A stretch of DNA of 64,000 nucleotides from Candidatus Staskawiczbacteria bacterium (GCA_903835075.1 CAILLM010000002.1:16920-80919); one strand, 5' to 3'; counted from the first letter of the stretch, positions 7,892 to 47,628 are shown. Program-made: numbers and translations. Notes: generated by a model not told the origin, from the letters alone.

Positions 7892-8881
7892 CTATTGGAC
7901 TGTTTTTTCTGAGATTAATTGGTTGAGTATTTTTTTGACCTCATTCATGCTGGCTTGGTCAATTATGGAAATGGGAATAATTTTTTTTCCCCCTTCGGGC
8001 GATCTGCCGAAGGCAGAAAATTCTTTTTTGATTTTTATAACAGTTTTTTCATCAATCAAGTCACTTTTACTTAAAAATATGTATTCTTTTTTATCTAAAA
8101 GTAAATCTCCATAATTCTCTAGCTCGTGTCTGACGGTTTTATAGTCAAGCAGGGGGTTATTAGAGTCAGCAGAAATAAAATGAAACAAAATCTTTGTACG
8201 CTCTATGTGTTTTAAGAATTTCACGCCAAGCCCCTTGCCTGTTGAGGCGCCCTCTATGAGCCCAGGTATGTCAGCCAGTATTAGGTCGTAATATACGCCC
8301 AAATTTGGCTCTAGGGTGGTAAAAGAATAATTAGCCACCTTTGCTTGCGCTTTAGTAAGTTCGTTTAACAGGCTTGATTTCCCTACGTTTGGTAGGCCTA
8401 CAAAACCTACATCAGCTATCATTTTGAGTTCTAAGTGTAGTTCAAACTTTTCACCTGGTTTTCCTTCTTGAAATTGTCTTGGGCTGGTGTTGATTGCACT
8501 TCTAAAATACCAATTTCCTTTTCCGCCAATTCCACCCTTTGCAACTAACTCGCGTTGGCCAATTTTTGTGATTTCAATGTCTTTGTTTGTGGTAATATTG
8601 TGGCAAACCGTGCCTACTGGTACATGTAAAATAAAATCATCAGCATTACTACCATCGTGGAGTCCTGATTTCCCGTTTTCTCCATCTGGTGCGTTGTAGT
8701 CTTTTTTAAAACGAAAATGCCTTAAAGCTCCAAGGTCTGCGCATCCTTCCAAAAAAACGCTTCCACCAATTCCACCATTCCCGCCAGTTGGCCCTTTAAC
8801 AAATTTTATTTTACTAAAAGTTGACATGCCCTTTCCACCATGTCCAGCTGAAACAGTAATTTTTACATCATCTACCATCAT
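7892..8881 (-). CDS. obg: GTPase Obg/CgtA
   Basis: Gly-rich Obg fold (GGNGGIGGS, GGIGGKGN) and G domain GLPNVGKSS, DIPGLIEGA. Carries an in-frame GC-rich palindrome at 7992-8013. Confidence 0.93.
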   Translation of the reverse strand: MMVDDVKITVSAGHGGKGMSTFSKIKFVKGPTGGNGGIGGSVFLEGCADLGALRHFRFKKDYNAPDGENGKSGLHDGSNADDFILHVPVGTVCHNITTNKDIEITKIGQRELVAKGGIGGKGNWYFRSAINTSPRQFQEGKPGEKFELHLELKMIADVGFVGLPNVGKSSLLNELTKAQAKVANYSFTTLEPNLGVYYDLILADIPGLIEGASTGKGLGVKFLKHIERTKILFHFISADSNNPLLDYKTVRHELENYGDLLLDKKEYIFLSKSDLIDEKTVIKIKKEFSAFGRSPEGGKKIIPISIIDQASMNEVKKILNQLISEKTVQ

Positions 8882-9499: not shown

Positions 9500-10126
9500 T
9501 TAATTTATATCGTTTAATAATATTTGGTGGTCTTTCTTAAACCATTTTAAACAAATGTGATAAATGCCAAACGTTATAAAGTATGCGGCCATTACATCTA
9601 TGGTGTAATGGTAATGCCCAAGCAAGGCTAATATACCTAATATAACAGAAATAGAGACAAATGAATAGCGTAATTTCTTCTCTGGCCAAAAAATTAAAGC
9701 CATTAGAAACGGGAAGCCCACATGCCCTGAAAAAAATAAATCTCCACCCGAGGTAATGCTTTTAAAAATATTTAAGTTTGTGGCAACAATATTTGGGTAA
9801 ATTCCCACGTGAGTCATGGTTATAAAAACAGAACGAATCAAAATAAAAACAGAAGTGCTTTTTAGTATAAAAAGCATTCTTTGAGGCTTAATTAAACATA
9901 GAATTATTATAAAAATAATTACGGCAAAAAAGCCATAAACAAAAATATCGGCTACATTAAAAATTGGGATATTGCTTAAAATTATGTCTGTGACAGCATT
10001 GCTTTGTTTATCGGTGGCATAGTCTGAGGCAAAATATTCAACAACCAAGCTTACAAATAAAAAAACTATTCCCGTAACAAGGGAATAAGCAAAATATTTG
10101 TTTGTTAAATATTTTTTATGAATCAT
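9500..10126 (-). CDS. PAP2_C/sphingomyelin-synthase-like membrane phosphatase-fold protein
   Basis: Polytopic membrane protein with SGH (FFSGHVGFP) and HYHYTIDV motifs. Confidence 0.5.
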   Translation of the reverse strand: MIHKKYLTNKYFAYSLVTGIVFLFVSLVVEYFASDYATDKQSNAVTDIILSNIPIFNVADIFVYGFFAVIIFIIILCLIKPQRMLFILKSTSVFILIRSVFITMTHVGIYPNIVATNLNIFKSITSGGDLFFSGHVGFPFLMALIFWPEKKLRYSFVSISVILGILALLGHYHYTIDVMAAYFITFGIYHICLKWFKKDHQILLNDIN

Positions 10127-10920
10127 TTTATTAGAAAATACCCAATTATTATTATGCCCAATATAATTCTGTAGTATCCAAACACTTTAAAGTTGTGTTT
10201 TTGAACATAATTCATGAAAAATTTTATTACCACTAGGGCTGTAAAAAAAGAAACAATAAGCCCTATTATTAATACGGAAAGCTGGCTTGGATTGAGTAAG
10301 GCGTGATATTTTAACAAGCTGTATCCGGTAGCAGCTATCATTGTTGGAATTGCCAGAAAAAATGAAAATTCTGTTGCTACTAATCGCGAAGTGCCAAGAA
10401 GCAGTGCGCCAATTATTGTAGCTCCAGATCTTGATGTGCCAGGAATCATGGACAGGCATTGAATTAATCCAATAAAAAATGCTGTTTTATAGCTAAGATC
10501 TTTTATAGAAGTAATTTTTGCATTGTGATTTAATTTTTCAACAATTAAAATAATTATTCCGCCAATTAGTAAGGCAATGGCAACCGTCCAGGGATTAAAT
10601 AATTTTTCTTCAATTTTGCTAGCAAACAATGCTCCAACTATTATGGCAGGTAAAACGCCAACCAATGTTTTGAGCCAAAGACTTTTGTCTTGCCAAAGTC
10701 GTTTCTCTCCCTTCGGGAGATGTCCCGTAGGGACACAGAAAAAGAAAACCACTGCCAAAATGGCGCCAAGTTGTATAACTACATCAAAAAGTAAAGTAAA
10801 ATTTTTATCAAAAGTGATAAATTGATTTACCAAAATTAAGTGCCCCGTAGAAGAAATAGGCAAAAATTCAGTGAAACCTTCCACCACACCCAAAATTATT
10901 GCAGTAATATAGCTAAGCAT
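10123..10920 (-). CDS. uppP: Undecaprenyl-diphosphatase
   Basis: BacA/UppP motifs (EFLPISSTGHL, PGTSRSGATI). Contains an in-frame GC-rich element at 10706-10733. Confidence 0.9.
   Translation of the reverse strand: MLSYITAIILGVVEGFTEFLPISSTGHLILVNQFITFDKNFTLLFDVVIQLGAILAVVFFFCVPTGHLPKGEKRLWQDKSLWLKTLVGVLPAIIVGALFASKIEEKLFNPWTVAIALLIGGIIILIVEKLNHNAKITSIKDLSYKTAFFIGLIQCLSMIPGTSRSGATIIGALLLGTSRLVATEFSFFLAIPTMIAATGYSLLKYHALLNPSQLSVLIIGLIVSFFTALVVIKFFMNYVQKHNFKVFGYYRIILGIIIIGYFLIK
10706..10733. repeat. GC-rich double mini-hairpin element, in-frame in uppP
   Basis: tctcccttcgggagatgtcccgtaggga. 26 of 27 nt are identical to 25984-26010. Encodes PTGHLPKGE within an otherwise AT-rich gene. Confidence 0.85.
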
Positions 10921-10964
10921 ATAGTTATTCTATCAAAAAATTGCCCAAGGGGCAATTTTTGTAA

Positions 10965-24800: not shown

Positions 24801-25906
24801 GATCCTAAAATTAATTCTGTAATTTTTTTAAATAACCAAGCTAGTCCAATAAAAAATGCCAAGTATAAAATAGTTGCTAACCATGCGGGAAAATATTTAT
24901 AAATAAAATCATAACGGTAGAGAATTGGCCAGTGAAGTAGATAAATTTCGTAAGAATAAACACCAAAAAGTTGAAGCAACTTAAAGTCTAATTTTTTAAT
25001 TGAGAAAAGCCAAACAATTGCCAGCATTGTAATTACGCTAGTTAATTGACCTTTTGTGCCTGTAAAATAATAAGACAACCAGCCAATAAAAACCAAGAGT
25101 AATGCAATTAGCACATAATGCCCAATTAAAGAAGCGCGTTGCTTCAGCCAGTTTTTTCCGGCAATAAATTTTGTATAAAATTTACTAGATTTTGTGTCGG
25201 GCTGATTTGGTAGTTGGTAGAAGATCCATGAAGCAACAATTCCCAACGGAAAGGCTAGAATGTGTAAATTATAAAAAAATGCTACACCACTTATTACAGG
25301 GAAGTTAAAAATTAAAATTATATAACTTATGGCATAAATTACTATTGCTGATAACCACGGGCGTTTTTTTGAAAATAAAACAGGGTAAAGCAAATAGTAA
25401 AATAAAATGAAAGTAAAATACCAAAACGGTGAGTTAACGTCTTTGTATAAGTCGGCAGTGGTAAAAATTCCAAAAATTGCTTTTGTGACAAATTGCCAAG
25501 GATAGTCAATGTTAAAAACAAAAAAATCAATAAGTAAAAAAGAAAATAAAGCCAACCAAAATGGTACAAATAATTTTAAAAAGTTTTTTTTATAAAATTC
25601 TAGTGTTGATAATGGTTTTCTAAACATACTAGCTGTAAGCCCCAATCCCGACAGAAATAAAAATATATCTACTCCAATGCCTGACATTCCTGATAATGGA
25701 AATAAAAAACTGTGATCAGTTACCAGAAAATATCCAATATGGGAAAAAAGAATTAATAAAATTGCCAAACCTTTTAATTCTTGACTTTGCGCAATGGGAA
25801 AAAATGTTTGGTCTTTTTTTATGCGCGTGAAAAGCAAAAATACCACCAGCATTATGGCTTCAAAAATTAATGTTGAAAAAACCGGATTATTTATTGAAAT
25901 TAGCAT
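24782..25906 (-). CDS. Acyltransferase family 3 membrane protein
   Basis: 374 aa, about 10 TM segments, OafA-like layout. Adjacent to an SGNH hydrolase. Confidence 0.7.
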   Translation of the reverse strand: MLISINNPVFSTLIFEAIMLVVFLLFTRIKKDQTFFPIAQSQELKGLAILLILFSHIGYFLVTDHSFLFPLSGMSGIGVDIFLFLSGLGLTASMFRKPLSTLEFYKKNFLKLFVPFWLALFSFLLIDFFVFNIDYPWQFVTKAIFGIFTTADLYKDVNSPFWYFTFILFYYLLYPVLFSKKRPWLSAIVIYAISYIILIFNFPVISGVAFFYNLHILAFPLGIVASWIFYQLPNQPDTKSSKFYTKFIAGKNWLKQRASLIGHYVLIALLLVFIGWLSYYFTGTKGQLTSVITMLAIVWLFSIKKLDFKLLQLFGVYSYEIYLLHWPILYRYDFIYKYFPAWLATILYLAFFIGLAWLFKKITELILGSWKHTT

Positions 25907-26660
25907 AAATTATGTTTGCCCATAGCGCATAACCTGTGGCTGATGGGTGAAATAAATCTTTTGAATAATATGAATTTGATTTTTCTCCCTTCGGGAGATC
26001 TCCCGTAGGGTGATTAAATTCTTCTTTGGCAGGAGAATATAAATCAATATAACTTAAATTATATTTTGTTGCCAAATTTTTAATTATTTTGTTGAATTGA
26101 TTTGTTTTAAAATCAAAATAATAGTTCCAAGGAGGTAGAATTAAGGTATTTGCTCCTATATAGGGAATATTAATTAAATAAATTTTAGCAGAAGTTTTTG
26201 TGGTTAGTTGTTTTATGATTTCTTCATAATTTTTTTGAAATTCTGATTTTGAAACAAAGTTGTGGATGTCATTAACTCCAATTAGTAGAGTAGCAACATT
26301 AGGGTTGCTGGCAACTGCTTGTGGAAGAAAAAAATTTTTTACGTCAATGCTTTTGTAGCCAAGCTCGGAAAGATTTTTTAAGGTTATGCTGTTATTTTGA
26401 GCAAGGTTTTTGGCAATTAAATATGGGTAAGTTTGTTGGTAGTTTTCAGTACCTGCTCCTGCCGTTAGACTGTCACCCATAGCGATGTAAACTAGATTTG
26501 TTTTACTAATATTGTTGCTAATTGTATAGGTTTGGCTTTTTTCTGGAGTTTTTAAGTTGGCATTATGAATTTCTTGGTAAATGTAGGCGTAAGCTCGATT
26601 CAAATAAACCACAGATGTAGTTAAAATTAATAAAATAATAAATAGAGCAATTTTTTTCAT
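25887..26660 (-). CDS. SGNH/GDSL hydrolase
   Basis: AMGDSLTAG, GVNDI and DLFHPS blocks. Start set at MKKIALF (signal peptide). In-frame GC-rich element at 25984-26010. Confidence 0.8.
   Translation of the reverse strand: MKKIALFIILLILTTSVVYLNRAYAYIYQEIHNANLKTPEKSQTYTISNNISKTNLVYIAMGDSLTAGAGTENYQQTYPYLIAKNLAQNNSITLKNLSELGYKSIDVKNFFLPQAVASNPNVATLLIGVNDIHNFVSKSEFQKNYEEIIKQLTTKTSAKIYLINIPYIGANTLILPPWNYYFDFKTNQFNKIIKNLATKYNLSYIDLYSPAKEEFNHPTGDLPKGEKSNSYYSKDLFHPSATGYALWANIIYANFNK
25984..26010. repeat. GC-rich double mini-hairpin element, in-frame in the SGNH hydrolase
   Basis: tctcccttcgggagatctcccgtaggg, a near-identical copy of 10706-10733. Encodes PTGDLPKGE. Confidence 0.85.
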
Positions 26661-26747
26661 GTTATATTTTATTATTCTATCATAAAATTTTTTACTTGTC
26701 CTAAAAGAAGTCAAAGGACATAAAAAAAGAGAGCAAATAAATGCTCT

Positions 26748-36045: not shown

Positions 36046-37020
36046 ATGGAATCACCACAGAACATAAAGAAAAGACTGAGGTCAGTCAATAATATAAACA
36101 AAATTACTAAGGCCATGGAAATGGTTGCGGCTACTAAAATGCGTAAATCGCAGGAAATAGCCCTAGCCAGCAGGCCTTATGCTTTTGCGGCACTTGATTT
36201 TTTGGCAACAGTTTCCAACTTAGATTCGGCAAAATTGCCAGAATTGTTTCACGATAGGACAAAAAATCCTTCGACAAGCTCAGGACCGCGGGTTTTATTT
36301 GTTTTGGTGTCTTCTGACAAGGGCTTGGCGGGAGCATTTAACAGTTCGGTTTTTAGAAAATTCGCCGCCCATTTTGAAAAATGGGCGAGCCTCGCCCCAA
36401 AGGGGCGGGAGGAGCAATTGTTTGTCGCGATTGGTGAAAAAGCAAATCAGTATTTATCAAAAAAGGGTTACAACGTTGTAAAAAAATTTACAGCAGTTGG
36501 CGACCATACCACAGTAGAGCAAGTTAAGCCAATCGCTGATTTTATTGTTGAAGGTTTTTTGGCGGAAAGCTGGGACAGGGTAGTTGTTGTTTCAACACAT
36601 TTTAGAAGTGCATTAAAACAAGAACCGCACGTACGCACAATCTTGCCTATTGATTTTGATCATATTGCAGAAACAATAAAAGAAATTATTCCCGAGCGCG
36701 GAAAATTTGCTGATTTGATAAAAGAACAAAACATAAGTTTTATACCAAGCAAAACCGATTCAAGGGATTATTTAATAGAACCGTCGGCAGAAGAAGTTTT
36801 AAATAATTTGGCAAAGCATTTATTTTTTATGCAAATGTACCATATAATTTTAGAAGCAAACGCATCCGAACATTCCGCCCGCAGAATGGCCATGAAAACA
36901 GCTTCTGACAACGCAAAAGATTTAGGAGACAGATTAAATTTACAATATAATAAATCAAGACAGTCGAGAATAACTACAGAAATTAGTGAAATCTCGGCGG
37001 GTGCTGAGGCATTAAGTTAA
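36046..37020 (+). CDS. atpG: F0F1 ATP synthase subunit gamma
   Basis: ITKAMEMVAATKMRK N-terminus and ITTEISEISAGAEAL C-terminus. In-frame GC-rich elements at 36267-36291 and 36384-36410. Confidence 0.93.
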   Translation: MESPQNIKKRLRSVNNINKITKAMEMVAATKMRKSQEIALASRPYAFAALDFLATVSNLDSAKLPELFHDRTKNPSTSSGPRVLFVLVSSDKGLAGAFNSSVFRKFAAHFEKWASLAPKGREEQLFVAIGEKANQYLSKKGYNVVKKFTAVGDHTTVEQVKPIADFIVEGFLAESWDRVVVVSTHFRSALKQEPHVRTILPIDFDHIAETIKEIIPERGKFADLIKEQNISFIPSKTDSRDYLIEPSAEEVLNNLAKHLFFMQMYHIILEANASEHSARRMAMKTASDNAKDLGDRLNLQYNKSRQSRITTEISEISAGAEALS

Positions 37021-41092: not shown

Positions 41093-42796
41093 ATGGAACA
41101 AGAAATTAAATTATGCCAAAATTGTAAAAAGGACTTTACTATAGAGCCTCAAGATTTTGATTTCTATGAAAAAATGAAAGTGCCAGCTCCAACGTTTTGT
41201 CCGGAATGTAGGTTTCAACGTCGCATAATGTTTCGCAATGAAAGGACGCTTTATAAGCGAAAGTGTGATTTGTGTGGCAAGGATGTGGTGACAATTTTTT
41301 CTTTAGATTCAAAATTGATTGTGTATTGCCAATCGTGTTGGTGGTCGGACAAATGGGACGATGGTGAATATTTTTTAGATTATAACCCAGAAAAACCGTT
41401 TTTTGAGCAAATGATTGAATTGCAGAAAAAAACTCCGCATATGGCTTTAGTGAGTGAATATGCAACATTGATTAACAGTGATTATGTAAATCACGCAGGA
41501 GGGCTTAAAAATTGTTATTTAATCTTTAACGCTGATTTTTGTGAAAATGTTTTATACTCAACAGTAGTTGTTCGAGTTAAAGATTCTTTGGATTGCCATA
41601 TGGTTGGCGAATCAGAGCTTATGTATGAAGACATTGATAGCACGGGTTATAAGCTATTTTTCTCCGAAAGTTGCACAAAATGTAGTGAATCTTATTTTTT
41701 AAAAAGTTGCATTGGTTGTGATAATTGTTTTGGTTGCATTAATTTAAGAAATAAAAAATACTGCATTTTTAATCAGCAATTTACGCGAGAAGAATATTTT
41801 GAAAAAATTAAGGAATACAAACTTAACAGTCATAGTGAATTGTTGAAGATTAGAAAAATAGTCGATGATTTTTGGTTGAAATATCCTAATAAATTTATGC
41901 ACAAAGACGCCCAGTGCGTCAATGTTTCTGGGGAATATGTTTTTCGTGCAAAAAATGCTTTAAACTGTTATCAGGCGCGCGAGCTGGAAGATGCTCGTTA
42001 TTGTCAGTTTATAACAATGCCACCGGCTAAAGATATTTATGATCTTACCGAGTGGGGGATGGGTGTTCAGCGGGTAGTAGATGTCACGGGCGTTGGCGAT
42101 GGGGCTGACATGGTCAAATTTAGCATGAATGCCTGGCATCAAGGAACTATGGAGGTGGAATATGGGATGTATAATATATCATGTCAAAATGTTTTTGGTT
42201 GCATTAACCAGAAGAAAAAACAATATAGTATTTTAAATAAGAAGTATTCGTCGGAGGAATATTTTGCTTTGCGTGCGCAAATCATAGAAGACATGGAAAA
42301 AAATCCTTATGTTGATTCTGTGGGAAGAATTTGGCATTATGGAGATTTCTTGCCATATGACTTAAGCCCATTCACATATAACGAATCTCAAGCAATACAA
42401 TATTACCCGCTTTCTAAAGAAGAAATTTTAAAAAAGGGATGGACATGGCGTGAGCCAGTTACGAGCAGTCACGTTATAACAATACCGGCCAATAAAATCC
42501 CCGACAATATTAATGAAACACAAGATTCAATATTAAGAGAAATTTTAGGATGCGATTTGTGCGGTAAAGCTTTTAAAATAACTTCGGCTGAGTTCGCGCT
42601 TTTAAAGCGTTTTGGATTTTCTGTTCCACATTTTTGCTCGGATTGTCGGCATATGGAGCGCATTAAACGAATTAACCCGCCTAAATTATGGAATCGTAAT
42701 TGTGCTAAATGCAACACAGCATTTCAAACATCTTACGCGCCCGATAGGCCGGAAATTGTGTATTGCGAAGGCTGTTACAATAACGAAGTAAATTAA
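41093..42796 (+). CDS. Cys-rich multi-zinc-ribbon protein, paralog A
   Basis: N-terminal CQNCKKDFTIEPQDFDFYEKMKVPAPTFCPECRFQRR (zf-trcl-like). Central repeats of the GCINLRNKKYCIFN type. C-terminal double ribbon ending RPEIVYCEGCYNNEVN. Confidence 0.75.
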   Translation: MEQEIKLCQNCKKDFTIEPQDFDFYEKMKVPAPTFCPECRFQRRIMFRNERTLYKRKCDLCGKDVVTIFSLDSKLIVYCQSCWWSDKWDDGEYFLDYNPEKPFFEQMIELQKKTPHMALVSEYATLINSDYVNHAGGLKNCYLIFNADFCENVLYSTVVVRVKDSLDCHMVGESELMYEDIDSTGYKLFFSESCTKCSESYFLKSCIGCDNCFGCINLRNKKYCIFNQQFTREEYFEKIKEYKLNSHSELLKIRKIVDDFWLKYPNKFMHKDAQCVNVSGEYVFRAKNALNCYQARELEDARYCQFITMPPAKDIYDLTEWGMGVQRVVDVTGVGDGADMVKFSMNAWHQGTMEVEYGMYNISCQNVFGCINQKKKQYSILNKKYSSEEYFALRAQIIEDMEKNPYVDSVGRIWHYGDFLPYDLSPFTYNESQAIQYYPLSKEEILKKGWTWREPVTSSHVITIPANKIPDNINETQDSILREILGCDLCGKAFKITSAEFALLKRFGFSVPHFCSDCRHMERIKRINPPKLWNRNCAKCNTAFQTSYAPDRPEIVYCEGCYNNEVN

Positions 42797-42848
42797 TATA
42801 GAAACAGCCGAAGTCCTGAGCCGTGCCGAAGGACGAAACTTGCTACCA
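42746..42848. repeat. 103-nt near-identical block (3' end of paralog A plus downstream)
   Basis: Matches 44560-44662 with only 3 mismatches, whereas the gene bodies are strongly diverged. Confidence 0.85.
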
Positions 42849-42942: not shown

Positions 42943-44610
42943 ATGGAACAAGATGCGCGTAATTGTCAGAATTGCAAAAGCGAGTTTGTAATTGAGCCCG
43001 ATGATTTTGCGTTTTACGAAAAAATGAAGGTACCAGCACCAACATTTTGCCCAGAGTGCAGGAGACGAAGAAGATTGTCTTGGCGAAATGATTTTGTTTT
43101 TTATAATCGTAATTGTGATTTGTGCAAAAGAAACATAATTTCAATTTATTCTCCGGATAGCCCTCAAGTAATTTATTGCAATAAATGTTGGTGGGGTGAT
43201 GGCTGGGATCCAAAAAAATATGCACAAGATTTTGATTTTAGCCGTACTTTTTTTGAGCAATTTAAAGAATTTCGCCTAAAAGTGCCAACTCTTGCTTTAA
43301 CTAATGACAATAATATAGGAAGTGAAAATTGTGAATATACGCAAAATTTTGCTTTGGGTAAAAATTGCTATATGACAATGGTTTCTTGGAAGGTTGAAAA
43401 TTGTATGTACACTTGTTATGCCGCTGAAACAAAAGACACAGTGGATTCAATGGGAATTTTTAGCACTGGCGAAGGTCTTTACGAGGTAATGTATAGTGAA
43501 AAATGTTTTGGATGTAGAAATATCTATGGTTCTTCAAGTCTTATGAATTGCGCCTATTGTACAGAATGCGTGGGCTGTGAAAATTGCTTTATGTGTATAA
43601 ACTTGCGGAATAAGCAATATTATATTTTAAATAAACCCTATTCCAAAGAGGAGTACGAAAAGATTATAAATTCTTATAAATTAGAAACGCTTAGCGGAAG
43701 CGAAAAAGCCAGAGTTGAATTTGAGGCTTTTTTACGCACTCAGCCAAGGAGATTTGTTTCTTCAAGGAATTGCGTTAATTGCACGGGAAACAACATAATT
43801 AATAGCAAAAATGCAAAAAATGTTTTTCATTGTCGCAGATCGGAAGATTCTAAATATTTAGAGAATGGCGATACCCAAAAAGATAGTTATGACTTGTGCG
43901 TTGGTGGGGAACTTTCAGAATGTTATGAGGGTATAACTCCAGATAACTCAAACAAAGCATTGTTTTCTATTTATACATGGAAATGCATGGATGTAGCTTA
44001 TTCGGAATTTTTGCAATCTTCAAAAAATTGTTTTGGCAGTGTTGCTTTAAAACATGGTGAATATTCAATTTTTAATAAACAATACACCAAAGAAGAATAT
44101 TTTAAGTTAAAAGATGAAATTATAGAGCATATGAAAAAAAGTGGAGAATGGGGGGAGTTTTTTCCAATAAATTACTCACCATTTTCCTATAATGAATCCA
44201 TGGCAATGGTAGATTTTCCTTTAACAAAAGAAGAAGCTTTGATAAAAGGTCTTAATTGGCAAGATAATATTCAGGAAACCAAGGGCAAAACAACTTTAAA
44301 AAATATTCCAGATAGCATAAATAATGTTGAGGATTCAATTTTAAATGAAATTTTAGAATGTTCTGTTTGTGAAAGAAATTATAAAATAGTTACTGATGAG
44401 CTGGCTTTTTATAGAAAATGGAAAATTCCAGTACCTACAAAATGCTTTTTTTGTAGAATTAAAAAAAGACTAGAAATTCGCGGGCCATCTAGGCTTTGGC
44501 ATAGGAATTGCATGAATAAAGGTTGCACAAATGAATTTGAAACCAGCTATGCGCCCAACAGGCCGGAAATTGTGTATTGCGAAGGCTGTTACAATAACGA
44601 AGTAAATTAA
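42943..44610 (+). CDS. Cys-rich multi-zinc-ribbon protein, paralog B
   Basis: Same architecture as 41093-42796. N-terminal CQNCKSEFVIEPDDFAFYEKMKVPAPTFCPECRRRRR. Confidence 0.75.
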   Translation: MEQDARNCQNCKSEFVIEPDDFAFYEKMKVPAPTFCPECRRRRRLSWRNDFVFYNRNCDLCKRNIISIYSPDSPQVIYCNKCWWGDGWDPKKYAQDFDFSRTFFEQFKEFRLKVPTLALTNDNNIGSENCEYTQNFALGKNCYMTMVSWKVENCMYTCYAAETKDTVDSMGIFSTGEGLYEVMYSEKCFGCRNIYGSSSLMNCAYCTECVGCENCFMCINLRNKQYYILNKPYSKEEYEKIINSYKLETLSGSEKARVEFEAFLRTQPRRFVSSRNCVNCTGNNIINSKNAKNVFHCRRSEDSKYLENGDTQKDSYDLCVGGELSECYEGITPDNSNKALFSIYTWKCMDVAYSEFLQSSKNCFGSVALKHGEYSIFNKQYTKEEYFKLKDEIIEHMKKSGEWGEFFPINYSPFSYNESMAMVDFPLTKEEALIKGLNWQDNIQETKGKTTLKNIPDSINNVEDSILNEILECSVCERNYKIVTDELAFYRKWKIPVPTKCFFCRIKKRLEIRGPSRLWHRNCMNKGCTNEFETSYAPNRPEIVYCEGCYNNEVN

Positions 44611-44662
44611 TATAAAAACAGCCGAAGTCCTGAGCCGTGCCGAAGGGCGAAACTTGTTACCA
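44560..44662. repeat. 103-nt near-identical block (3' end of paralog B plus downstream)
   Basis: See 42746-42848. Confidence 0.85.
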
Positions 44663-44818: not shown

Positions 44819-45908
44819 ATGGCAGAAATAACTCCACAAATTGAAGAGCTTGAATCACGCCTCCAGAATTTGGGAGACCGTCTTTGACATAACCGGAAAA
44901 GAAAAGAAATTAAAAGAATTAGAAGACGAGTCTGTAACGCCAGATTTTTGGAATAATAACGAACATGCAACAGAAGTTCAGCAAGAAATTTCAGAAATAA
45001 AAAATGAGATTTCAGCTTTAGAAGAAATAAAGAAAGATATAACCGCCTTCGCCGAAGGCTTCGGCGAGTCAAGGGAAGATTTAAATAAAAAGATAGAAAA
45101 ATTGGAATTTAAAACCTATTTATCTGGCAAATATGACAAAAATAATGCAATTTTAGAAATATTTTCTGGCGCAGGTGGGCAAGATTCGCAAGATTGGTCA
45201 ACAATGCTTTTACGAATGTATGAGAGATATTGCAACAGCAAGGGTTGGAAAACTGAAATTTTACATCAAGCATTTGGAGAGGGTGGTGGACCAGAAGGAA
45301 GAATTGGCACAAAATCTGTCACAATAGAAATAAAGGGAAGTCATGCATATGGATTTTTGAAAAAAGAAGCAGGGGTGCACAGGCTAGTAAGGCTTTCACC
45401 GTTTAATTCGCAAAAACTTAGACACACTTCCTTTGCTTTAGTAAATGTTTTGCCCGAGATAAAGGATAGCGAATTATCCGCCCTAGGCGGACCAGCCTCG
45501 GGCTGGGAAATTAGGCCAGATGATTTAAAAATTGATACCTTTAAGGCTTCTGGACCAGGCGGACAGTATGTTAACAAAACAGAATCAGCAGTAAGAATTA
45601 CGCACATACCAACGGGAATTGTTGTGGCTTCACAAACCGAAAGATTGCAGGGAAAGAACAAAGATAAGGCAATGAAAATATTGGTTGCAAAACTATACCA
45701 GTTGCGCGAAGAACAACACGTAAAAGAAATTAAAGAAATAAAAGGGGAAAACATTTCTGTGCGTTTTGGAAATCAAATAAGGTCTTATGTTTTACACCCA
45801 TATAAAATGGTAAAAGACTTACGCACACTTTACGAAGCATCTGATGCAGAAGGAGTTTTAGATGGGGATTTAGAAAAATTTATTGAAGCTGAAATAAAAC
45901 ATGATTAA
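44819..45908 (+). CDS. prfB: Peptide chain release factor 2, with programmed +1 frameshift
   Basis: Frame 0: MAEITPQIEELESRLQNLGDRL then CTT TGA C at 44882-44888, preceded by GGGAG. The +1 frame continues as DITGKEKK... SPF-equivalent region and GGQ motif (SGPGGQYVNKTESAVR). Confidence 0.92.
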
Positions 45909-46595: not shown

Positions 46596-47510
46596 ATGTT
46601 TACAAATTTTAAAAGAATAACAGACTTTGCAGTAAAAGATTTTAGCAGAAACAAAGGCATTTCAATTGCTGCAATATTTGTTTTGGTGATTACAATTATG
46701 TTAGTTACTGGGTTATTCTTTTTTCAGGGCATGGTGGGTTATTTAACAACTCAAATTCAAGATAAAATTGATATTACAGCTTATTTCAAAGATGGCACTG
46801 CTGAGCAAGATATTTTAAATGCAAAAGATGAAATTATAAAAATGTCTCCAAGTGTAAAAAATATAGAATATGTTTCTAAAGATCAGGCGTTGGCAACTTT
46901 TAATACAACACATCAATCGGACACGGTTTTATCACAAGCGTTGCAGGAAGTAGGAGTTAATCCATTTTTGCCTTCTTTGAATATCACAACAAACGGGGAT
47001 GCTACTCAATATTCTCAAATTTCTAATCTTTTACAAACAGCGGATTTTAGTAATTTGGTTGACAGCGTAGATTATTCTCAGAAAAAAGATATCATTGAAA
47101 AAGTTTATTCCATAACATCTAAAATAAACTTAGTGGGCCTAATTTTGGGAATTATTTTAGTTATTTTAGCTATATTAGTAGTTTATAATACAATAAAACT
47201 TGCAATAGAAAATTCCAGCGAAGAAATTAGCACAATGAAAATAGTTGGTGCGTCTGATTGGTTTATACGCGGACCATTTATCGTGCAAGGAGCAATTTAT
47301 GGGTTAGTTTCATTTTTAGTTTGTATTGTTGTTACTGCTATTGCTGCATTCTTTTTGTCTCCTCAAACAGCAATCGCTTTGCCAGGGTTTGATATGTTTG
47401 GTTATTTTATGAGTAATTTGTGGATTTTTATATTAATACAATTGGGGTTTGGCGTAGGTGTAGGGGGAATTTCTAGTTTTATTGTTGTCAAAAAACACTT
47501 ACAGGTATAA
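46596..47510 (+). CDS. ftsX: Cell division permease-like protein FtsX
   Basis: N-terminal TM segment, periplasmic domain and 3 C-terminal TM segments. Adjacent to ftsE. Confidence 0.85.
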   Translation: MFTNFKRITDFAVKDFSRNKGISIAAIFVLVITIMLVTGLFFFQGMVGYLTTQIQDKIDITAYFKDGTAEQDILNAKDEIIKMSPSVKNIEYVSKDQALATFNTTHQSDTVLSQALQEVGVNPFLPSLNITTNGDATQYSQISNLLQTADFSNLVDSVDYSQKKDIIEKVYSITSKINLVGLILGIILVILAILVVYNTIKLAIENSSEEISTMKIVGASDWFIRGPFIVQGAIYGLVSFLVCIVVTAIAAFFLSPQTAIALPGFDMFGYFMSNLWIFILIQLGFGVGVGGISSFIVVKKHLQV

Positions 47511-47628
47511 TATAGACCGTAATATTGCGAGATCGTCCCTCGGCCGTAGCCCGTTGGTCTACAGCCTACGGGCGAGGCTAACGGCCCCGCCTTAGCGGGG
47601 TCCCGCTGTGGCGGGATAAGACACTACT

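Follow-up and report, generated by a model that had tools for sequence, protein, structure and literature searches.

A 30-bp double mini-hairpin repeat dispersed across Candidate Phyla Radiation genomes, with in-frame copies in uppP, an SGNH hydrolase gene and obg

How does one short GC-rich sequence come to lie in frame in two unrelated genes? The question is raised by a 64,000-nucleotide stretch of DNA from a Candidatus Staskawiczbacteria bacterium (GCA_903835075.1, CAILLM010000002.1:16920-80919; hereafter, the window), in which uppP, encoding undecaprenyl-diphosphatase, and a gene for an SGNH/GDSL hydrolase each contain a copy of the same 27-mer, at 10706-10732 and 25984-26010 (plus strand), the two differing only at position 17 (G/C). 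No such match is expected by chance, as judged from 100 dinucleotide-preserving shuffles, and because the G+C content of the window is only about 35%, the two blocks are conspicuous. A first, sequence-only reading had described the 27-mer as a pair of tiny hairpins, oriented alike relative to the coding strand, that adds PTGHLPKGE to UppP and PTGDLPKGE to the hydrolase. The pair, its single difference and its orientation are confirmed, both copies lying inside minus-strand open reading frames (ORFs) whose translations contain these residues. The length required correction, as the second hairpin runs three bases further and the unit measures 30 nt. Both 27-mers, together with a third copy in obg, are members of a 30-bp GC-rich quasi-palindromic repeat family that is dispersed across genomes of the Candidate Phyla Radiation (CPR)/Patescibacteria.

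Three copies in the window and the sites that lack them

The copy in uppP occupies 10706-10735 (+) and consists of TCTCCC-TTC-GGGAGA (10706-10720), followed directly by TGTCCC-GTA-GGGACA (10721-10735). Its host gene lies at 10123-10920 on the minus strand (PF02673) and encodes 265 aa (...FFFCVPTGHLPKGEKRLW...), within which the copy is read as (C)VPTGHLPKG(E). The second copy, at 25984-26013 (+), reads TCTCCC-TTC-GGGAGA and TCTCCC-GTA-GGGTGA, with a single T·T mismatch in stem 2, and encodes (N)HPTGDLPKG(E) in the SGNH hydrolase gene (25887-26714, minus strand; PF13472/PF00657; ...EEFNHPTGDLPKGEKSNS...), which probably starts at the ATG that yields a product of 257 aa. A third, diverged copy is found at 7988-8017 (+) in the gene for the Obg GTPase (7892-8881, minus strand; Pfam GTP1_OBG, assigned on syntenic orthologues). 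It reads TCCCCC-TTC-GGGCGA and TCTGCC-GAA-GGCAGA, is also a GC island, and encodes SAFGRSPEGG near the Obg C-terminus; pairing in its stem 2 is retained through a double change from C-G to G-C (CTGCC-GAA-GGCAG). A covariance model built on 91 family members and run without filters finds exactly three copies in the window, scoring 59.5 bits in uppP (E = 1.2e-15), 49.9 bits in the SGNH gene (E = 7.4e-13) and 37.1 bits in obg (match 7985-8020, E = 3.8e-9).

The closest named homologues of UppP and of the SGNH hydrolase come from Candidatus Staskawiczbacteria and other Patescibacteria, and comparison with orthologues demonstrates that the copies are insertions. In an alignment of 120 UppP homologues, short-loop forms read FFW-KRLW-xxDLW where the window protein has FF[C-VPTGHLPKG-E]KRLWQDKSLW. 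At the DNA level, the syntenic orthologue L114 preserves an empty site, ttt ttt tgg aaa agg ttg tgg, against the filled site ttt ttc tg[T GTC CCT ACG GGA CAT CTC CCG AAG GGA GA]g aaa cga ctt tgg of the window. In this one clean case the insert is an exact 30-nt block within a TGG codon, and no target bases are duplicated. The ten extra residues of the SGNH hydrolase are likewise missing from 78 of 78 orthologues, apart from one identical protein (P0121), and the insertion is consistent at the DNA level with aa[TCACCCTACGGGAGATCTCCCGAAGGGAGA]a, the boundary of which may shift by one base because of flanking A/T runs. Both copies that the sequence-only reading had taken for lineage-specific insertions are, by this alignment, just that. 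The SGNH gene, including its insert, is 100% identical across three independent assemblies from different runs and samples, and the insert is therefore not an assembly artefact.

The obg copy is similarly missing from the syntenic orthologue L114. In another relative, L112, an unrelated perfect palindrome of 18 nt, CCTGCCTGCGCAGGCAGG, lies in obg a few codons from the site of the obg copy. This palindrome, read as LPAQAG or LPAQSG, is present in frame in the Obg genes of L112 (5636-5653) and L113 (5549-5566) and in the UppP gene of L115 (2215-3009); none is found within the window.

Both structural comparisons place the inserted residues at positions that the fold can accommodate. Mapped onto the structure of E. 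coli UppP (5oon, E = 1e-53), the insert falls in a length-variable loop after the VVIQLGxILAV helix, in agreement with the homologue alignment, in which this loop is rich in insertions and deletions; the placement in a loop between conserved blocks, as first proposed, is thus borne out. In an AlphaFold2 model of the SGNH hydrolase (mean predicted local distance difference test score, pLDDT, of 92), the insert, at about residues 216-225 of the 257 aa, is the sole extended coil of low confidence (block pLDDT 61-71), and the encoded residues are predicted to form an ordinary surface coil. The UppP loop also holds other lineage-specific inserts in the homologues P0020, P0050, P0096, P0102 and P0118, such as VPHSGQARLQ, NPSAPLWA, GPEGRLNG and SGQALQNKPGQTPLKV, which suggests that this loop is a hotspot for short inserts, and their residues (P, G, S, Q, A, R) hint at an origin in GC-rich DNA.

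Structure, distribution and coding residence of the family

The family consensus is AAATTG, TCTCCC-TNC-GGGAGA, T(C/G)TCCC-GNA-GGGA(G/C)A, CAAATT; that is, two 15-nt stem-loops with 6-bp stems, placed in inverted orientation with no spacer between them. When no constraint is placed on the loops, 88% of copies have TNC as loop 1 and 94% have GNA as loop 2, with the middle base free. GNA and TNC are reverse complements, so that the two halves of the element are one 15-nt stem-loop in inverted orientation, and each strand therefore reads a C(TNC)G hairpin and then a C(GNA)G hairpin. Most alignment columns are fixed by the search pattern, and the sole stem pair that is free to vary in it covaries (CG 47, GC 32, AU 3, other 9, among 91 copies), a pattern that may reflect a few ancestral switches instead of many independent events. 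Under a model of two hairpins, 95.1% of cells are paired, and none of 500 shuffles reaches its pairing or its covariation score.

A single long hairpin or cruciform spanning the whole unit was rejected as the functional fold. This model performs no better than shuffles, and it explains neither the 20/32 CG/GC covariation nor the loop centres of the two halves, which are complementary in only 13 cases where chance would give 27.8. Nearest-neighbour DNA folding nevertheless favours the long hairpin (about -9 kcal/mol, z-scores -2.6 to -3.9). Among DNA triloops, only GNA, with any N, gives a very stable mini-hairpin, the stability of which is under-predicted by conventional energy models (PMC13037366), and it is likely that this under-rating of C(GNA)G mini-hairpins accounts for the preference for the long fold. 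The initial description of two tiny hairpins is thus backed by covariation, and the strict TNC/GNA loop rule points to folding at the level of DNA rather than RNA. On one of its strands, each half of the element presents a C(GNA)G triloop in which N is free, matching the reported requirement of the DNA mini-hairpin d(GCGNAGC), which is itself a structural motif and not a genetic element, known in nature from single sites at the origins and promoters of phages and plasmids (PMC13037366).

The flanks of intergenic copies have a character of their own. Many such copies have tandem AT-rich heptamers (GGAAATT/GAAATTG type) on either side (L003, L040, L047, L061, L085 and many metagenome loci), and it is these heptamers that give the flank consensus its apparent direct repeat of AAATT; they may reflect a target preference, a duplication or membership of a larger element. 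In addition, in the metagenome-assembled genome (MAG) H43-bin045_1 the unit is nested in a larger element, about 120 nt long and bounded by 12-bp terminal inverted repeats, TGTCATTGCGAG...CTCGCAATGACA, which resembles a transposable element of the miniature inverted-repeat type (MITE) and is present on at least 12 contigs (L004, L016-L018, L028, L033, L034, L038, L051, L072, L101 and L108). The composite forms and GGAAATT brackets suggest, by analogy, mosaic elements akin to repetitive extragenic palindromic (REP) sequences and bacterial interspersed mosaic elements (BIMEs).

That the sequence recurs well beyond the window was established by a search of the kind that the sequence-only reading had called for in the whole genome and related MAGs. 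The pattern CCCTTCGGGAGATNTCCCGNAGGG, with 22 fixed bases, was run against 596 Gb of bacterial and archaeal genomes, one genome per species, and matched 111 loci from about 70 assemblies, against about 0.07 expected by chance. Of these loci, 95 bear the names of CPR lineages, including Saccharibacteria, Paceibacterota/Parcubacteria, Nomura-, Doudna-, Staskawicz-, Azam- and Berkelbacteria, as well as Portnoy-, Uhr-, Harrison-, Roizman-, Yanofsky- and Moraniibacteria. A pattern in which both loops are free, TCTCCCNNNGGGAGATNTCCCNNNGGGA, adds at least 120 metagenome loci. The match between the two 27-mers is accordingly no coincidence confined to one contig, hundreds of copies existing elsewhere. 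Among the non-CPR matches, those labelled Pedobacter (L037) and Clostridia (L044, a MAG) are ordinary terminator palindromes, AAAAG-CCCTTCGGGA...TCCCGAAGGG-CTTTT, and were discarded as not belonging to the family. The remainder are unclassified or doubtfully labelled MAG contigs (labels Gammaproteobacteria, Methanoregula, Methylomirabilis), one of which, L002, shares 87.5% identity in its flanks with a locus from Patescibacteria.

The repeat is sparse. One MAG contains at least 14 element loci, and the covariance model finds only about 10 further copies that had not been seeded by the pattern in 700 kb of flanking DNA (about 1 extra per 70 kb), giving an overall density of roughly 1 per 20-70 kb, with 3 per 64 kb in the window. 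Viral contigs (IMG/VR) gave no match to either pattern, and a phage origin was rejected on that ground. A known RNA family was likewise rejected, Rfam 15 reporting only four tRNAs at gathering score over the window and no match for the element, and no copy embedded in ribosomal RNA (rRNA) was found in the sample, as searched by conserved 16S/23S motifs. In the openly accessible full-text literature, no description of the sequence was found, nor of REP- or MITE-like repeats in CPR bacteria, and such repeats thus appear to be new to the CPR literature.

A substantial fraction of copies resides in genes, although genes are clearly disfavoured. By a crude gene caller, 49 of 119 copies (41%) lie within a coding sequence (CDS), compared with about 83% coding DNA in those loci, so that the odds of a copy being in a CDS are about seven-fold below expectation. 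The coding copies are spread evenly along gene length. No orientation bias could be upheld, neither the 30:17 split within CDS nor the 18:15 split between co-directional genes being significant. Across 184 sites, 81 (44%) are in open frames of at least 200 codons, a few of which probably lie just 5' of the true start codon, and the three frames are used 33/24/24. At none of the 184 sites does the element supply a stop that has 120 or more open codons on each side. The element's frames are free of stops, except for one frame when the GNA loop on the coding strand is GTA, and this sole frame/loop combination that creates a TAG is absent among the coding copies.

At least five peptide readings result, SPFGRSPVGR, LPSGDLPKG, SLREISRRE, SPYGRSPEGR and LPTGDLPKG. 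A conserved peptide motif was consequently set aside, as these are one DNA sequence read in three frames and both orientations. A Pfam scan of ten of the longest host ORFs identified GyrA, three class-I tRNA synthetases (tRNA-synt_1, of the Ile/Leu/Val/Met type), three SecA proteins, PPDK, an O-antigen ligase-like protein and LigA. Two of the SecA orthologues carry independent copies in one variable loop, read in different frames as SLPPGDLPKGD and SSPYGRSPEGRQ, which shows that the repeat is an entity at the DNA level and that permissive loops have been struck repeatedly. Some of these hosts have further peculiarities. The GyrA host (L075:2177-6223, minus strand) also has an intein with a LAGLIDADG domain, and the three synthetases (L087, L216, L090) have a histidine-phosphatase domain (His_Phos_1) inserted mid-protein.

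A proposed mobile repeat weighed against its alternatives

The reading that we consider probable is that the element is a non-autonomous repeat resembling REPs and REPINs (REP doublets forming hairpins), with a folded single strand as its functional unit, that is translated where it is tolerated. A new copy would be inserted without duplicating its target, probably by means of an enzyme acting in trans that recognizes the folded single strand. Selection would then purge most copies that land in genes, and the survivors would be transcribed with the host gene and translated into its protein. Survival in coding DNA may be favoured because the unit is exactly 10 codons long, its frames are mostly stop-free, and a decapeptide rich in Pro, Gly, Ser, Arg and Glu fits into surface loops. 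The notion of a mobile or templated mini-element tolerated in frame, as first put forward, is therefore sustained as far as insertion and recurrence are concerned, mobility itself being what we infer from them.

REPINs are inverted REP doublets that are mobilized by REP-associated tyrosine transposases (RAYTs), Y1 enzymes of the IS200/IS605 type whose genes are often flanked by the repeats. Like REPs and REPINs, the element consists of GC-rich stem-loops (REPs are 20-40 bp, with stems of 5-13 bp) arranged as inverted dimers, has subfamilies with complementary stem changes, and is dispersed in multiple copies, REPs numbering tens to hundreds. REPs occasionally lie within genes, in some cases at a site shared by orthologues (PMC3733652, PMC3337134), and they are long-lived within a lineage (bioRxiv 10.1101/2022.05.22.493013). 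Unlike REPs, the element lacks a terminal GTAG/CGTC tag, its flanks being AAATTG/CAAATT and GTAG occurring solely in loop 2 when N = T; unlike REPINs, it has no spacer between its units, and its loops are restricted to TNC/GNA triloops. Whereas REPs are mostly extragenic, 41-44% of element copies are in ORFs, even though this is a depletion relative to the coding fraction of about 83%, and whereas REPs are usually species-specific, the sequence of the element is common to class-level CPR lineages. With no tag, no mainly extragenic distribution and no RAYT found in the flanking DNA searched, the element is REPIN-like in its action and is not classed as a REPIN.

The analogy with Rickettsia palindromic elements (RPEs), which the sequence-only reading had drawn, holds for behaviour and fails for membership. 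RPEs are also palindromic and found in frame in unrelated housekeeping genes of a reduced AT-rich genome, at sites tolerated by the fold, and they are translated along with the host protein (PMC10969869). They are confined to Rickettsia, a different phylum, measure about 100-150 bp and yield one conserved peptide in one frame, whereas the element, at 30 bp, is five times shorter, has readings in all three frames and in either orientation, and extends over a superphylum. MITEs, such as Correia elements and the Coxiella QMITEs, share with it a non-autonomous nature, terminal inverted symmetry and in-frame ORF fusions (PMC10969869, PMC5896051), and the terminal inverted repeats that define them are present, the 30-bp unit as a whole being one inverted repeat. 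A MITE usually measures 50-500 bp and has a target-site duplication, in contrast to 30 bp with no duplication at the uppP site, and it is traceable to a parent insertion sequence (IS), no such parent being known for the element from its flanking DNA.

Comparable repeats are found in mitochondria, including the double-hairpin elements of Allomyces. The mitochondrial GC clusters and hairpin elements of fungi, sponges and placozoans are likewise small GC-rich hairpin repeats in compact AT-rich genomes, mainly intergenic and also in rRNA and protein genes at length-variable sites, and their route of spread is unknown (PMC2800124). They differ in being organellar, in their unrelated sequence and in having rRNA copies, none of which was found for the element in the sample.

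Several observations weigh against a REP-like mobile repeat. No transposase was detected near the element when 1.6 Mb of flanking DNA was searched by phmmer for relatives of IS608 TnpA and of the E. coli RAYT, using approximate sequences as queries, a weak test, and no recurrent transposase family emerged, in a Pfam test that is also weak, among 93 neighbouring ORFs of the richest MAG, which belong to housekeeping families only, with PDDEXK_3 occurring twice. Presence/absence polymorphism between close strains was not found, the nearest insert-free orthologues being 69-76% identical. The uppP copy is also present in L112/L113, where it was found by protein homology and is hence free of pattern bias. 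Between the uppP genes of the window and of L112/L113, nucleotide identity is 74%, and 54% when only third-codon positions are counted, and the element in this pair is 29/30 identical, with 11/11 third positions retained (P = 0.001). Such conservation indicates that the copy has been constrained, has been converted or was inserted there a second time, and it would not be expected of a neutral, decaying selfish insert. Similar conservation in pairs found by the pattern (28-30 of 30 bases kept between flanks 65-79% identical) was set aside, since both members had been pre-selected by the pattern. Furthermore, the same stems recur across class-level CPR lineages, while REPs are usually species-specific. 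Finally, the different 18-nt palindrome family occupies the identical position of uppP in L115, between tg and g of the same codon, which points to a site preference or a shared host process.

The foremost alternative is that the repeat is not selfish, and is instead a DNA or RNA signal selected by the host and held under purifying selection, acting for example in binding of, or priming by, a conserved CPR protein, in replication or recombination, or in mRNA pausing or stability. Such a signal would account for stems that are invariant over class-level lineages and that covary, and for a uppP copy that keeps all of its third-codon positions when 54% are kept elsewhere; GNA mini-hairpins are, moreover, known at the single-strand initiation sites of phages and plasmids (PMC13037366). 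It would be harder to reconcile with the sporadic presence of the element in 1 of 79 SGNH and 2 of 121 close UppP orthologues, with the turnover of the obg site among relatives, and with positions in genes that are arbitrary and include both orientations and all frames. The low density (3 per 64 kb in the window, about 1 extra per 70 kb in the loci) also speaks against a host function, and the conservation that is free of ascertainment bias amounts to one orthologous pair. We regard a host-selected signal as rather unlikely.

CPR bacteria are thought to import DNA, and it is conceivable that the copies have been spread or homogenized by homologous recombination, gene conversion or DNA uptake, for instance as an uptake sequence in bacteria reliant on competence. 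This would explain why identical sequence is found in distant lineages and why old copies remain uniform. Uptake sequences, by comparison, occur about once per kb and the element about once per 20-70 kb; 30 bp is at the lower limit for RecA-type conversion; and uptake bias does not account for the first entry of a 30-nt block at a site without flanking homology. Recombination or uptake as the cause is, on these grounds, improbable.

It is more doubtful still that the insert goes untranslated, either as a mini-intron that is removed or by ribosome skipping, as with the byp elements of yeast mitochondria. The superficial likeness to bypass elements, as GC-rich structured blocks in AT-rich genes, is countered by a length of exactly 30 nt in the UppP DNA and 10 residues in the SGNH hydrolase, by the lack of any site (0/184) at which an element stop or a frame break splits a long ORF, by the absence of the stop-containing frame/loop combination from coding copies, and by the modelling of the SGNH residues as ordinary surface coil; we give this explanation very little credence. 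Chance resemblance or an assembly or adapter artefact, for which only the shortness of the match speaks, is almost certainly wrong, as shuffles predict no matches, three independent assemblies agree on the SGNH gene and its insert, a copy is conserved in another species, and hundreds of further copies exist.

One bolder proposal can be tentatively entertained. Of the mobile or actively maintained DNA elements described in bacteria, the 30-bp unit might be the smallest that is self-contained, its two C(GNA)G mini-hairpins being recognized by a putative CPR-wide single-stranded DNA enzyme or being themselves a selected DNA signal (for example in priming, restart or recombination) that is kept at synonymous sites even in essential genes.

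Other GC-rich segments and the meaning for CPR genomes

Other GC-rich blocks are found in genes of the window. The gene for release factor 2 (prfB, 44841-45908, plus strand) contains at 45474-45511 a different double mini-hairpin, CCGCC-CTA-GGCGG AC CAGCC-TCG-GGCTG, in frame and encoding SALGGPASGW. Set against a solved RF2 structure (9fy1), the protein of the window gains about 8-9 inserted residues at this block and has a 6-residue insertion of the GGGPEG type at query residues 144-149 (about 45270-45287), and a further GC-rich block at 45041-45075 (AFAEGFGES) aligns where the window protein is shorter than 9fy1. The ATP synthase gamma gene (36046-37020, plus strand), an AT-rich essential gene, has in-frame GC-rich blocks at 36268-36292 (PSTSSGP), akin to CCTTCGACAAGCTCAGG-type repeats that are frequent in MAGs, and at 36380-36418 (WASLAPKGRE).

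Further segments lie between genes. About 100 nt at 47526-47622 are very GC-rich and strongly self-complementary, following an ORF that ends at 47510 and lying 265 nt upstream of a tRNA with no called overlap; the segment matches no Rfam family at threshold, and it may represent either a structured RNA that annotation has missed or hairpin repeats in a cluster. Near-identical GC-rich segments (ACAGCCGAAGTCCTGAGCCGTGCCGAAGG..., at 42804-42836 and 44618-44653) follow, a few bases 3' of the stop, each of two adjacent ORFs similar in length (41093-42796 and 42943-44610), and have the appearance of duplicated 3' hairpins or terminators. Between uppP and the minus-strand ORF upstream of it, a hairpin at 10942-10954 (TGCCC-AAG-GGGCA, between AAAAAAT and ATTTTT) looks like a bidirectional intrinsic terminator.

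A large part of bacterial diversity belongs to the CPR/Patescibacteria, whose tiny, gene-dense genomes are usually called repeat-poor. A 30-bp repeat that is found across the CPR, in frame in GyrA, SecA, IleRS, LigA, Obg, UppP and others, would be an unrecognized source of lineage-specific loop insertions, affecting alignments, phylogenies and structure predictions, and it could be used as a marker for strain typing and for checks of bin contamination. It also offers a route to the enzyme or host process that places GC-rich hairpins in AT-rich genomes, a question that mitochondrial GC clusters and the RPEs of Rickettsia raise as well. As the loop rule indicates folding at the DNA level, the mechanism is testable in vitro with short oligonucleotides.

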